A stretch of DNA of 64,000 nt from a virus: IMG/VR virus record IMGVR_UViG_3300034121_001395. One strand, 5' to 3'. The position numbers were made by a program, and so were the translations under genes. The notes beneath the pieces are model-generated. The model saw only the letters and a program-made list of their open reading frames with translations, ran no database searches and had not been told where the DNA came from. Shown one piece after another: positions 45,797-52,891 of the stretch; positions within the stretch are counted from its first letter, which is position 1; each line of letters begins with the position of its first letter.

Positions 45797-46005
45797 ATAA
45801 AAACACTTATCTCAAGCACAGAAGATTCTGCAACTATGAGTTCAAATTTGGTGATGTCATTCGGGTAGTTGAATATAGCAAGTCGCCGCCACAGGAAAGC
45901 GAAGAGCAAGCCCCAAAGCAACCATTCGACCATGAGGCAATGTCAGAAGCTGAGTACCAAAGTTGGGTGAGGCTATCTAACGCTAACATGCAACTTCGCT
46001 GTTAA
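45797..46005 (+). pseudogene. Degenerate small ORF after the fibre gene
   Basis: ATA for ATG plus a 1-nt shift restores (M)KTLISSTEDSATYEFKFGDVIRVVEYSKSPPQE..WVRLSN. Confidence 0.35.
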
Positions 46006-46165
46006 TATGCTTAATGGCGAGGGTGGTAATATCATCCCAATAAATAACCAAATTTACCATACCGTCCATTAATACTTGCCATGCCTCTCAACGATGCGCA
46101 CTTTGGTGGGTATTTTTGCATAAAAAATCATAAATTTGGCATTTTTAGACCTTGGAAGCACTAGA

Positions 46166-46275
46166 TTTCTCTATACGGGGCCTAACTTCGGGACCTTTTT
46201 TCACTTTTTTGAAAAAAGTTGTGTACTTTCTCTGCATTTTAGTGTATAATGACCATGTAAGCAACACAACACAAT
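46166..46275 (+). repeat. Repeated early-promoter cassette, copy 3 (heads the ncRNA array)
   Basis: TTTCTCTATACGGGGCCTAACTTCGGGACCTTTTTTCACTTTTTTGAAAAAAGTTGTGTAC-N18-TATAAT. Confidence 0.85.
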
Positions 46276-46362
46276 ATGAAAGAAACATTAGGAATTTTCA
46301 TCGGAATCAATGCAGCAGTTTGGTTCGTCATCTTTATCCAAACCATGAACGGTAGTTGGTAA
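46276..46362 (+). CDS. 28-aa hydrophobic peptide
   Basis: MKETLGIFIGINAAVWFVIFIQTMNGSW directly after the promoter. Confidence 0.45.
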   Translation: MKETLGIFIGINAAVWFVIFIQTMNGSW

Positions 46363-46366
46363 TCAC

Positions 46367-46455
46367 AAGAGTTGAACATCTTTTAAAAAGCTTTGAGCTT
46401 CGGGCACTCGTTAAACCGCTCTAGAGAGTTGAGCATCTCTTAAAACTGCTCACCA
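46367..46455 (+). ncRNA. Three tandem H-type pseudoknot units
   Basis: For example AGAGA-GTTGAGCA-TCTCT-TAAAAC-TGCTCA; ends in CCA. Confidence 0.55.
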
Positions 46456-46472
46456 CTTTCAAAAAACAATTT

Positions 46473-46635
46473 TCCCCTGAAGTATTGGCCCGCCAGTAGA
46501 TCTTCTAGAACAAACACTAAGTGAATCCCGGGCATGTGACCAGTTGGAGTTAACGCCACCGAAACATGAATAGCTTAGTCAATGATCTAGAATGAACTCT
46601 GGGAGACGAGGTTCGACTCCTCGCGGGGGACACCA
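46473..46635 (+). ncRNA. tmRNA-TLD-like, CCA-ended structured RNA
   Basis: Acceptor TCCCCTG/CGGGGGA, T-arm CGAGG-TTCGACT-CCTCG, ACCA end, long interrupted helix in place of the anticodon arm. Confidence 0.7.
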
Positions 46636-46652
46636 CTTTCAAAAACAAATTT

Positions 46653-46823
46653 AAGGTAATGCCCCAATCGTAAGAGACTGCAGCTCGAGAAGATAAGAAA
46701 ATTAAATGTGCAGATGGACTCACACAGCCGTTTCTGATGATAGGAAGACCCCAGGATTGCTCAGCAATAGTAAGGAAACCGAACATGCCCGTGTTTCATC
46801 AGCAACAAAAGTTAGGCACGGGA
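46653..46823 (+). ncRNA. Unclassified pseudoknotted RNA
   Basis: CCCGTG/CACGGG stem whose loop TCATCAG complements upstream CTGATGA; CTGCA/TGCAG stem. Confidence 0.45.
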
Positions 46824-46843
46824 AATTTTCAAAAAACAAATTT

Positions 46844-46949
46844 ACTGATGGAGGTTGCAAACGAAATCAGAGATAAAAGGAACGAGCCTCTTGTCCGCAG
46901 GGAGAGCGTTAAAAAGTTTCATGGTGCAATTCCATAGCCTGCGGTGCCA
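46844..46949 (+). ncRNA. tRNA-minihelix-like RNA ending in CCA
   Basis: CCGCAGG/CCTGCGG stem, ATGG-TGCAATT-CCAT T-arm-like hairpin, TGCCA end. Confidence 0.5.
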
Positions 46950-47009
46950 TTTCCAAAAAAAACAACAACAAATACAAATAGAATAACGACATAAGATTTT
47001 AAAACCTTC

Positions 47010-47140
47010 TCTATCGCAAAGCCAGTAGTCATGACCTGGTAGTGGCCTATAAGAATATTATTCAAAAGTCCGTTCAATTCGGAGGTGATAGAAACCTGGG
47101 AGGCTCCTCAGCCCCAATTGAAGCTGTAAAGCACTGAGGA
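47010..47140 (+). ncRNA. Unclassified structured RNA with T-loop-like hairpin
   Basis: TCTATCGC/GTGATAGA, GCCAG/CTGGT, TCCG-TTCAATT-CGGA and TCCTCAG/CTGAGGA. Confidence 0.45.
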
Positions 47141-47281
47141 TACTTTTAAACAACAAACACCAAACCATGAAACTATCGCATTTTTATCCACTGGCCATCT
47201 TGATATCACTATTTTTTGGAGTCTGTATGATTGGATTCATCAGCGCTCTGTTCAAAGCAGTCTATCTTTTCTTTAACTAAT

Positions 47282-47614
47282 ATGAACACACAACGAACAA
47301 TACTAAAGGTTGAAAATAACGAGGCCGGAAAAACAATAATCTTTCATTTGAGGCGTGAGGTAAAAACTCATAATTTGAGAGAGCGTTTGAAAGAGATGGA
47401 GTCTCCAGACTATGTTGGAAAATTTAAACGAGTTGACCTCTATGGCCGCCTTGGAAAAAATAATCCAAATCGTCACAAATATTCTATTTCTAGTCGTCGC
47501 TCAATCTTTCGCAGCCACACTAGAATTCGTTTAGAAGATGCATCACACATTGCAGTCTATGTAAACAACGTCGTGCGCTCTAAGTTTGGTGGTTATACTC
47601 TCGTCTGTTCATGA
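47282..47614 (+). CDS. Hypothetical protein
   Basis: ATG 47282 after a 37-aa membrane ORF (47167-47280); LYGRLGKNNPN. Confidence 0.55.
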   Translation: MNTQRTILKVENNEAGKTIIFHLRREVKTHNLRERLKEMESPDYVGKFKRVDLYGRLGKNNPNRHKYSISSRRSIFRSHTRIRLEDASHIAVYVNNVVRSKFGGYTLVCS

Positions 47615-48207
47615 TTCCGGTTTTTCCCTCTCATAAGACTACACTCGTATTGACTGCAGGCTTTCAGCCGTGTGGATTTTTTTCTGCTCGGTCTGCAATT
47701 CGAAACATGATGGTTGGAGGCGTAAAAGCCTATGACCAGTATGGAAACATACGAGACTGGAGCAGCTGGATCGCGAACGACGATCATCTCAGTCCAAACA
47801 ACCCTGCGCTGAGAAGTGTCGACACGCTGTGGGCAATTCCTACAATCGTGGTGGTTCCTGGCTATTTTGGTCACTACAAGCAAGGCAAAAAGCAGCCGCG
47901 CGCAATCAACCTTCGTCAGCTGTATTATATCTATGGAGGAGAATGTCAATATTGTCTAAAGAAAATTCCATACACTTCTGCGACTCGCGATCATCTCATT
48001 CCTCGCAGTCGTGGAGGCGGCAACAACGACGACAATATCGTTCTCTCTTGCAAAAAGTGTAATACCAAAAAATCAAACAAGTTTCCATATTTCAACATTC
48101 ACGGCTCTGAAGTAAAGCCTAAGATGCTAAAAGACATTGAGTTTAGCGCGCTTAGTGAAAAAGTTACGATTCGTGAAGAGTGGAAGGATTTTTTACAATA
48201 TAAATAA
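47611..48207 (+). CDS. HNH endonuclease (McrA-like)
   Basis: CQYC..TRDHLIPRSRGG..NIVLSCKKCNTKK. Confidence 0.88.
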   Translation: MIPVFPSHKTTLVLTAGFQPCGFFSARSAIRNMMVGGVKAYDQYGNIRDWSSWIANDDHLSPNNPALRSVDTLWAIPTIVVVPGYFGHYKQGKKQPRAINLRQLYYIYGGECQYCLKKIPYTSATRDHLIPRSRGGGNNDDNIVLSCKKCNTKKSNKFPYFNIHGSEVKPKMLKDIEFSALSEKVTIREEWKDFLQYK

Positions 48208-48229
48208 ATCACTTATAGATAAAAAAGAT

Positions 48230-48259
48230 GTTTACATGTGAGAGAGTTTAGTGTATAAT
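48230..48259 (+). promoter_or_regulatory. Early promoter upstream of the tRNA cluster
   Basis: GTTTAC-N18-TATAAT. Confidence 0.7.
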
Positions 48260-48495
48260 GTCTCTGTAAGCAACAAGAAACAAAAGTTTCATAACTGAAC
48301 GCCACATCAACTGCTACTGAAAGTTGAGAACGTCCGTGGTTGTACGGCTTGGATCACTCAGTGATGCGATGTCAAAGGTTTGTATATAGGAGTTTTCGGT
48401 CCCTATAAAAAAGTCATAGTTGATTGCAGTTGCAGCGCACATTTTTTGCGCTCCTCATTCGACATGCCAATATGATTAACCGATAAATTTTCAAT

Positions 48496-48838: not shown

Positions 48839-48852
48839 ATAAATAATACACC

Positions 48853-49080
48853 ATGAAAACTATATTTCGCACCTCAACATACGTCAAGGTCGGTCAATTT
48901 TACCTTTCAATAAAACTGCCACTTAAGAGCGGTGAACGTCGCTTTAGAGTCACTCGTGATCATTCACGCTTTCAAAACTATTTTGAAATGCACGCTCTAG
49001 GATTTACATGCGGTCGCATGTGGTCTACTCATGCCCAACGTGCGAGTGAGAAGCGTTGGTTAAATTCACTCGAAGAATAA
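48853..49080 (+). CDS. Hypothetical protein
   Basis: 75-aa ORF within the tRNA cluster. Confidence 0.5.
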   Translation: MKTIFRTSTYVKVGQFYLSIKLPLKSGERRFRVTRDHSRFQNYFEMHALGFTCGRMWSTHAQRASEKRWLNSLEE

Positions 49081-52476: not shown

Positions 52477-52580
52477 TTCGTATCATGCGCGAATCCAAAT
52501 ATGTCATGACGCAGCTAGGTGTGGTTCCTAGATAGCCCCAGCCCTGGGTGAGTGTAGCAGCAATCTGTTATGGGCAAATA

Positions 52581-52771
52581 TTTAACGGGTATGTCGGCTT
52601 AGAAGTAGCCATCATATAAGAAGTGGAACTAAACGTGAAGAAGAGGTAATTCGTATGGATACAATTCAATCAAGCCATACACCCTTGCAAAAGGTACTGC
52701 GATACTCGTGAATTGCGTTTCATAGGACGAGCAATCGTAACTCCTTTGGTGTAACAACAACACCCGTTAAA
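52581..52771 (+). ncRNA. Mimic of the 23S rRNA L11-binding domain (H43/H44) with large insertion
   Basis: ATGTCGGCTTAGAAGTAGCCATCAT (H43-like) and GT-GTAACA-AC (H44-like) inside a TTTAACGGGT/ACCCGTTAAA stem. Confidence 0.75.
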
Positions 52772-52891
52772 TTCATTTTCTATCGTGCGTTTTGATCGCC
52801 CGAAGTATTCAGAGAAAACAGACAGGAAAATGAGTGTAGCAGCAATCTGTCATGGGCAAATTTTCACAAAAATAAGTCCTGGAGGTCAGTT

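Follow-up and report, generated by a model that had tools for sequence, protein, structure and literature searches.

A 64,000-nucleotide stretch of viral DNA (IMG/VR record IMGVR_UViG_3300034121_001395), referred to here in its whole length as the window, has a row of small-RNA modules at 46363–47166, at least six in number, that fold separately and share one orientation. The reading we favor, to which we give a probability of about 60%, is that this array is a co-transcribed row of independent, conserved structured-RNA genes, accessory RNAs of a transfer RNA (tRNA) cluster that were brought together behind a terminator/promoter cassette and are cut out by tRNA-maturation enzymes. A preliminary description of this DNA had proposed a non-coding, co-oriented row of differing structured RNAs whose homologues should covary. 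Such a row is present, and covariation was found for units 1, 2, 3 and 5b, identifying these four, at the level of sequence comparison, as real conserved structures. From the earlier reading as a whole, the row of structured RNAs, the linkers between them and the link to tRNA clusters are the parts that stand.

The region is non-coding. It holds only short open reading frames (ORFs), of at most 66 aa on the + strand and 78 aa on the − strand, in keeping with the earlier claim of a ∼780-nt stretch with no credible ORF. Because these ORFs cross unit borders and would be impossible in relatives that lack unit 3, they could not have been conserved. The previous division into five units captured the modular layout but merged distinct elements. 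What had been taken for a single unit 1 (46367–46451) is three tandem H-type pseudoknots of ∼29 nt each, every one with an A-rich stretch, and the former unit 5 is two elements, 47010–47093 and 47095–47150, that follow a 60-nt CA-rich spacer. The modules, and the tRNA genes downstream of them, are as follows.

46367–46393, + strand: pseudoknot 1 of unit 1; P1 AAGAG/CUUUU, loop GAAC pairing with GCUU after an A5 linker
46394–46421, + strand: pseudoknot 2 of unit 1; P1 UGAG/CUCG, loop GGGCA pairing with CGCUC
46423–46451, + strand: pseudoknot 3 of unit 1; P1 GAGAG/CUCUU, loop GAGCA pairing with UGCUC
46452–46472, + strand: linker 1, ACCAC UUUCAAAAAACAAUUU
46473–46635, + strand: unit 2, tRNA-like and laid out as is the tRNA-like domain (TLD) of transfer-messenger RNA (tmRNA)
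46636–46652, + strand: linker 2, CUUUCAAAAACAAAUUU
46653–46823, + strand: unit 3, ∼170 nt long, combining an H-type pseudoknot with two hairpins, H1 and the apical H3
46824–46843, + strand: linker 3, AAUUUUCAAAAAACAAAUUU
46844–46949, + strand: unit 4, in which a 5′ hairpin domain precedes a 3′ acceptor/T-loop minihelix and a final UGCCA
46950–47009, + strand: unstructured, CA-rich spacer made up of linker 4 and an extension, which occurs only together with unit 5
47010–47093, + strand: unit 5a, a weak tRNA-like cloverleaf, called by ARAGORN only at the 80% threshold
47095–47150, + strand: unit 5b, a conserved hairpin with stem CCUCAG/CUGAGG and loop CCCCAAUUGAAGC...AAAGCA, preceded by GGGAGG
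48.5–56.1 kb, all + strand: 21 tRNA genes

Module borders carry a linker of the (U)UUUCAAAA type. The near-identity of the linkers, remarked on before, holds up: a 22-nt linker occurs twice at no more than 2 mismatches, against 0.01 expected, its core TTTCAAAAAACAA is exact at 46457 and 46827, and the ACUUUC part of linker 1 follows pseudoknot 3 in every relative. The three T-loop-type hairpins described earlier are likewise there (GGUUCGACUCC, GGUGCAAUUCC and CGUUCAAUUCG). Three units do end in CCA in the window (46452-55, 46632-35 and 46946-49), although the CCA is conserved only in unit 2. The main tRNA cluster, on the same strand, starts ∼1.3 kb downstream of the array. According to ARAGORN, all of the window's tRNA genes but one Ser gene encode CCA with a U-rich trailer after it; ACCA-CUUUC is also found 3′ of tRNA-Ile(UAU), and AAUUUUCAAU stands 5′ of both initiator-type tRNA-Met genes. 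Since CCA plus U-rich junctions are common to the units and the 21 tRNA genes, the array uses the border signals of the tRNA cluster. Homologues of units 3, 4 and 5b are found between tRNA genes in relatives, which supports the proposed tRNA-cluster connection.

Relatives were gathered by pattern scans and by a search with the neighboring Clp-like protease, which together gave graded contigs (57–100% protein identity); the related IMG/VR contigs stem from freshwater samples. Patterns of 15–16 nt yielded only chance matches in viral contigs, and longer degenerate patterns were used instead. Among these relatives, in the comparison proposed before, units are swapped while linkers persist, with breakpoints at linkers in cases of unit loss, replacement and reordering. 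In genomes of the type of G001, the nearest genome, unit 3 and one linker are absent, with the junction falling within the linker repeat. Two small protein genes replace the spacer and unit 5 in L039-type contigs, and in L096 the spacer and unit 5 are absent. L268 and L269 show the reverse order, with unit 2 first and pseudoknots 2 and 3 of unit 1 directly after it. L196–198 have no array at all; there, orf110, which in the window lies downstream of the array, directly follows orf28, the small ORF just upstream of it. Modules are thus exchanged as cassettes between tRNA clusters and the early messenger RNA (mRNA) regions, and natural variants lacking, reordering or resizing single modules offer ready comparisons for tests of function. 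A stretch of ∼130 nt in L268 (5905–6035), ORF-free and rich in hairpins, separates unit 2 and the pseudoknots from the gene that comes next and could be one more module.

Unit 3 is the best supported of the units. Its family comprises seven distinct members (the window, L252, L254, the marine L260, L263, L209/L211 and G004), all of them detected by our model of the unit (R1) and each adjoining tRNA genes. The strand order S1-5′, S2-5′, S1-3′, S2-3′ makes the fold a pseudoknot, with stems S1 (CUGAUGA/UCAUCAG) and S2 (CCCGUG/CACGGG). Compensatory pairs number 15, four in H1, three in S1, five in S2 and three in H3, and G004 adds further pair types, among them a third Watson-Crick type at pair 1 of S1. 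Of the six members apart from the window, five begin with AAGGUAA directly past a tRNA CCA and AUUU(U), while in L263 a 5b-like element and more sequence separate the tRNA from AAGGUAA. At the 3′ end, five of the six show AUUU(U)CAAA and then the next tRNA, usually tRNA-Glu; G004 has AUUUUUAAAA in its place. Unit 3 itself is devoid of tRNA features. A hammerhead ribozyme, suggested by CUGAUGA...CGAA, was considered and rejected, because the heptamer pairs with UCAUCAG and covaries with it to UUGACCA/UGGUCAA.

Three further observations touch unit 3 or its surroundings. The palindrome CUGCAG within it (46678–46683) becomes CCGCGG in G004 (L270:415–420), so that a palindrome is kept, which hints at a dimerization or kissing contact. 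In L249 (395–440, − strand), a 40-nt hairpin directly after a 5b-like element contains the 5′ motif of unit 3 (GCUCCAAUCGUAAGAGUCUGCAGC) within a stem of 8 bp; its final bases are CCACCA, and model R1 gives it 25 bits. Finally, another conserved RNA-like element lies between unit 3 and tRNA-Glu at L252:6162–6290 and L209:11610–11760. This element is closed by ACUGUUGAA/UUCAACAGU, contains GGUGAAAAUCC and GGAAUGAGAAGCCCUAG, is flanked by the same UUUUCAAAA linker and has no Rfam match.

Unit 2 begins with a 7-bp acceptor stem, a 13-nt D-analogue and a long variable central arm, and continues with a 4-nt connector, a 5-bp T stem carrying the loop UUCGACU, and CA+CCA. On inspection, as distinct from any model score, these parts have the order and sizes of the TLD in the true tmRNA of L215. 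Changes in the acceptor stem preserve pairing (U·G to U-A, C-G to U·G and, at pair 7, G-C to A-U), the apical hairpin of the central arm shows compensatory stem changes, the T arm is invariant and CCA is retained in 7/7 haplotypes. The central insert differs in length, 102 nt in the window versus 41 nt in relatives. With the tmRNA TLD, unit 2 shares a long helix replacing the anticodon arm, the very same T loop and a CCA end. Unlike tmRNA (RF00023), it lacks G3·U70, the acceptor reading U1-A, C2-G, C3-G in every haplotype; a tag reading frame, an mRNA-like domain and internal pseudoknots are missing; and one extra nucleotide stands ahead of CCA. Neither unit 2 of the window (E up to 10) nor its G001 copy (E up to 1) matched RF00023, the Rfam tRNA model gave no match at unit 2, and ARAGORN at default settings found no tmRNA. 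A permuted tmRNA was called by ARAGORN only at the 70% threshold and had no recognizable tag; we regard this call as spurious.

True one-piece tmRNA genes do occur in this phage group, at G001:9001–9327 (81.6 bits) and L215:13781–14100 (93.8 bits), the latter with the tag GKNTLALAA. By synteny, the window's own copy would be expected just past its 3′ end. A phage-encoded SmpB was not found in G001, G002, G003 or G005. The group also includes RNAs of 69 nt that consist of a TLD only, at L199:11547–11615 (identical to G003:32194–32262) and G005:131722–131790. These have a 7-bp acceptor stem with G3·U70, a UUCGAC D-analogue, a short UUCG-capped hairpin replacing the body, a T arm and ACCA, and they score 39–46 bits with the tmRNA model, under the cut-off of 47. 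Together, unit 2 and the TLD-only RNAs of G003 and G005 make TLD-shaped RNAs a theme of the phage group.

The pseudoknots of unit 1 are supported by changes in both of the first two copies. In pseudoknot 1, the P2 pairing of the window (GAAC/GCUU) has one mismatch, and this helix covaries among relatives, which have GAGC/GCUU, GAAC/GUUU or AAGC/GCUU; the pseudoknot is absent from L096, L268 and L269. In pseudoknot 2, a U·G pair becomes C-G in L191, L194 and L268, and an A·C mismatch becomes A-U in L039, L268 and L269. Pseudoknot 3 is nearly invariant across all eight haplotypes and contexts. Identity among relatives is 91–96% for unit 1, compared to 72–77% for the flanking orf28 and 65% for orf110. 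The exact pseudoknot motif occurs in the window at 46369 and 46426 only, and a loose pattern finds dispersed copies at chance level (9, versus 0–8 in shuffles). In their tandem ∼29-nt units, the pseudoknots resemble the type III antitoxin RNAs ToxI and AntiQ, and in having hairpin loops that pair past an A-rich linker they resemble both these RNAs and preQ1-I, a small H-type pseudoknot riboswitch. However, known type III antitoxins carry near-identical repeats, whereas the repeats of unit 1 are unlike in sequence and no toxin gene adjoins them. The ligand-pocket signature of preQ1-I is missing as well, and no Rfam family matches.

For units 4 and 5, the comparative evidence is uneven. The minihelix of unit 4 consists of a 7-bp stem (CCGCAGG/CCUGCGG), a conserved 18-nt bulge and the T-loop hairpin AUGG-UGCAAUU-CCAU. 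A homologue at L199:11459–11532 (also in L218 and L249) lies between tRNA-Met and the 69-nt TLD-only RNA, and our model of the unit (R2) found no members past the window group and the L199 group. One compensatory pair (U-A to C-G) is seen in the T stem and wobble changes are seen in the outer stem, and 98% of cells are paired, versus 33–52% with the partners slid. Unit 5a has an 8-bp acceptor stem, a long extra arm and the T loop UUCAAUU, with neither a usable anticodon loop nor CCA, and its minimum-free-energy fold is a four-way junction. Unit 5b has homologues in tRNA clusters, after tRNAs, at L249:436–493 (− strand) and L263:3026–3076, and its stem changes are compensatory (A-U/G-C to G-C/A-U; U-A to U·G to C-G). 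It bears a weak likeness to the DUF2815 RNA (RF03084; 18.9 bits versus a gathering score of 41.2, E 3.4), to which its relatives in L249 and L263 show no match at E up to 5.

None of these RNAs could be assigned to a known family. The array and its relatives are unmatched in Rfam at gathering and E-value thresholds, the tRNA model RF00005 finds nothing in 46000–48495 at E up to 10, and default ARAGORN calls no tRNA in the array, forced calls appearing only at thresholds of 70–85%. Among 50,697 records of cultured phages, megablast and blastn gave no match to the locus, and blastn with the relatives of units 3 and 4 gave nothing in the same collection. The locus thus yields several new, well-delimited RNA families absent from Rfam, namely the triple pseudoknot, the tmRNA-TLD-shaped RNA that lacks alanine identity, the pseudoknotted RNA of 170 nt, the RNA ending in a minihelix and the conserved hairpin, with covariation-backed structures for units 1, 2, 3 and 5b. 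We also scored local similarity of the units to the E. coli rrnH operon (16S, 23S and 5S ribosomal RNA, rRNA) relative to shuffles. All units gave z < 2.2, among them units 3 and 4, whose AAGGUAA start and CCGCAGG/CCUGCGG stem resemble 16S h45, and rRNA mimicry by the array was rejected. The positive control, an RNA at 52580–52772 in the tRNA region, matches 30/33 bases of E. coli 23S rRNA 1056–1089, the GTPase-associated center (z 9.4), showing that RNA mimicry occurs in this genome.

The array sits behind a promoter, as had been claimed; more precisely, a predicted σ70-type promoter forms the second half of a repeated terminator/promoter cassette, and two very small hydrophobic ORFs bracket the modules.

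46176–46200, + strand: terminator-like hairpin and U-run, the first half of a terminator/promoter cassette of the promoter-early stem-loop (PeSL) type
46205–46250, + strand: σ70-type promoter, predicted from the sequence
46276–46362, + strand: orf28, a 28-aa hydrophobic ORF between promoter and array, the first cistron of the transcription unit
47167–47280, + strand: orf37, a 37-aa hydrophobic ORF, the next cistron after the array

The promoter consists of an A/T-rich upstream block, a −35-like TGTACT (46222–46227), a 17-nt spacer and a −10 TATAAT (46245–46250), a layout shared by the promoter at 48231–48259. The cassette core TTTTTTGAAAAAAGTTGTGTAC occurs five times in the window, against 0 expected, and the cassette at 46166–46276 recurs at least 10 times in G001. 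orf28 is conserved as a coding sequence (72–100% nucleotide identity among relatives). On the reading we favor, the array and its neighbors would be transcribed together as one primary transcript, which the enzymes of host tRNA-cluster maturation would cut into small RNAs. RNase P could cut 5′ of the acceptor/T-arm mimics in units 2, 4 and 5a, and RNase E and exonucleases could act within the single-stranded A/U-rich linker. The released RNAs would then act in trans on components that recognize tRNA shape or on the translation apparatus. The linker may double as a short homology for modular recombination.

Phage T4 provides the nearest precedent. Its tRNA cluster has at its end the genes of two small RNAs, RNAC (species 1, 139 nt) and RNAD (species 2, 119 nt) (PMC3014915), whose role is still unexplained (PMC3014915, PMC9697503). 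The array RNAs are of the same kind, in a new linker-joined and shuffled form: they too are small RNAs other than tRNAs whose genes accompany phage tRNA genes on one strand. In T4 rnaC, a body of ∼100 nt is enclosed by an imperfect acceptor-like closure and a canonical T arm is present (PMC3014915), much as in unit 2; the annotation of rnaD ends in CACC, the next genome base being A. On the other hand, distant-mode blastn against the phage collection, T4 included, finds no sequence similarity to the array, which has at least six modules rather than two, is detached from the tRNA cluster behind its own promoter cassette and small ORF, is joined by a conserved linker and is shuffled among close relatives. 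PeSL cassettes are known from T4-type phages (PMC2839356, PMC4122927). The cassette here resembles them in that a terminator hairpin is directly followed by an early-type promoter, in its many copies per genome and in its position at borders of variable gene blocks. The resemblance is confined to the cassette in front of the array; the module borders inside are marked by the much shorter A/U-rich linker.

Several observations weigh against independent, tRNA-like processed genes, at least for some units. Single-sequence folding energies are no better than those of shuffles (z −1.5 to +0.6), so the support for structure comes from the comparison with relatives. Two nucleotides, not one, separate the 7-bp stem of unit 2 from CCA. 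The terminal CCA of unit 1 is not conserved (AUCA, AGAC, GUCA and GGAC in relatives), and in L191 and L194 this unit stands alone between protein genes, which argues against purely tRNA-like processing. The covariation of unit 4 is not significant relative to shuffles, and its CCA is missing in the distant homologue of the L199 group. Unit 5a is the least supported unit, with no comparative support: it is represented by two near-identical haplotypes only, and their sole difference breaks a predicted pair. Finally, no terminator was found inside the array or between it and orf37, orf110 and the HNH gene; with none before these genes, and with unit 1 able to stand alone between protein ORFs, roles in cis are possible. 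The modules might thus be stabilizers, processing barriers or translational operators within an early polycistronic mRNA (orf28 - array - orf37 - orf110 - HNH). In L191, L194, L268 and L269, moreover, protein ORFs lie 30–40 nt past unit 1, and unit 5b ends 16 nt ahead of the orf37 start and resembles, if weakly, the DUF2815 5′-untranslated-region motif, down to the position of the AUG. But the homologues of units 3, 4 and 5b between tRNA genes have no ORF there to regulate, relatives lacking unit 5 retain orf37 behind a quite different sequence, and the direct succession of orf28 and orf110 in L196–198 indicates that neither gene needs the array. We consider a cis role unlikely as an account of the whole array; for units 1 and 5b, it is a serious rival.

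Two other explanations seem less plausible still. Unit 1 could mimic a type III antitoxin RNA of the ToxI/AntiQ kind and so neutralize a host abortive-infection nuclease of the ToxN/AbiQ type, the tRNA-shaped units being decoys for tRNA-directed defense nucleases. The tandem pseudoknots with their A-rich stretches, an abiF-motif-like hairpin just upstream (46075–46111) and the close copy of the 23S GTPase center would all suit such a role; yet no Rfam antitoxin family scores at E up to 10, the three repeats are unlike one another in sequence and dispersed pseudoknot copies do not exceed chance, and we judge the idea improbable. That the units are decaying tRNA or tmRNA pseudogenes with no function of their own is more improbable again. 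Unit 5a does look like a degraded long-arm tRNA, and relatives have a real tRNA in this place before 5b; unit 2 has its tmRNA-like layout, with a true tmRNA elsewhere in G001. However, units 1, 2, 3 and 5b show compensatory changes and exceed the flanking genes in conservation, and unit 3 lacks tRNA features altogether.

If the array RNAs are indeed independent trans-acting RNAs, what might they do? One tentative idea, which we hold to be doubtful, is that the array forms, with the alanine-type mini-RNAs that are a TLD only, the true tmRNA and the copy of the 23S GTPase center, a toolkit aimed at host translation and tRNA surveillance, with unit 2 as an unchargeable or mischarged TLD mimic and the traveling pseudoknots as its functional partner. 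Were this so, unit 2 would occupy a reader of tRNA or TLD shape, candidates being SmpB, RNase P, the CCA-adding enzyme and a defense nuclease that recognizes tRNA shape, and unit 2 plus the tandem pseudoknots, found together in three arrangements, would amount to a message-less tmRNA taken apart. The 23S GTPase-center copy may be said to keep the toolkit idea alive without proving it.

The source phage is uncultured, with a genome of ∼174 kb (G001 has 173,760 bp). One window protein was compared to those of T4-like phages and shows ∼30% identity. Genes 5′ of the array match phage families annotated as ribonucleotide reductase, exonucleases, the Clp-like protease and a tail-fiber protein. Neither orf28 nor orf37 matches a PHROG family, and L194 contains a second paralogue of orf28. 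A pattern scan of genome contigs returned two chance matches only, giving no clue to the host. Just upstream of the cassette, the hairpin at 46075–46111 is a near-match to the abiF RNA motif (32.2 bits versus a gathering score of 37, E 0.0028). A U-run follows it and its outer stem is lost in G001; it may be just a terminator-like element. Gene starts are preceded by CA-rich leaders that lack a Shine-Dalgarno sequence (46262–46278, 47150–47169 and 48840–48856; e.g. AACACAACACAAUAUG), a possible clue to an unusual style of translation initiation in the host.

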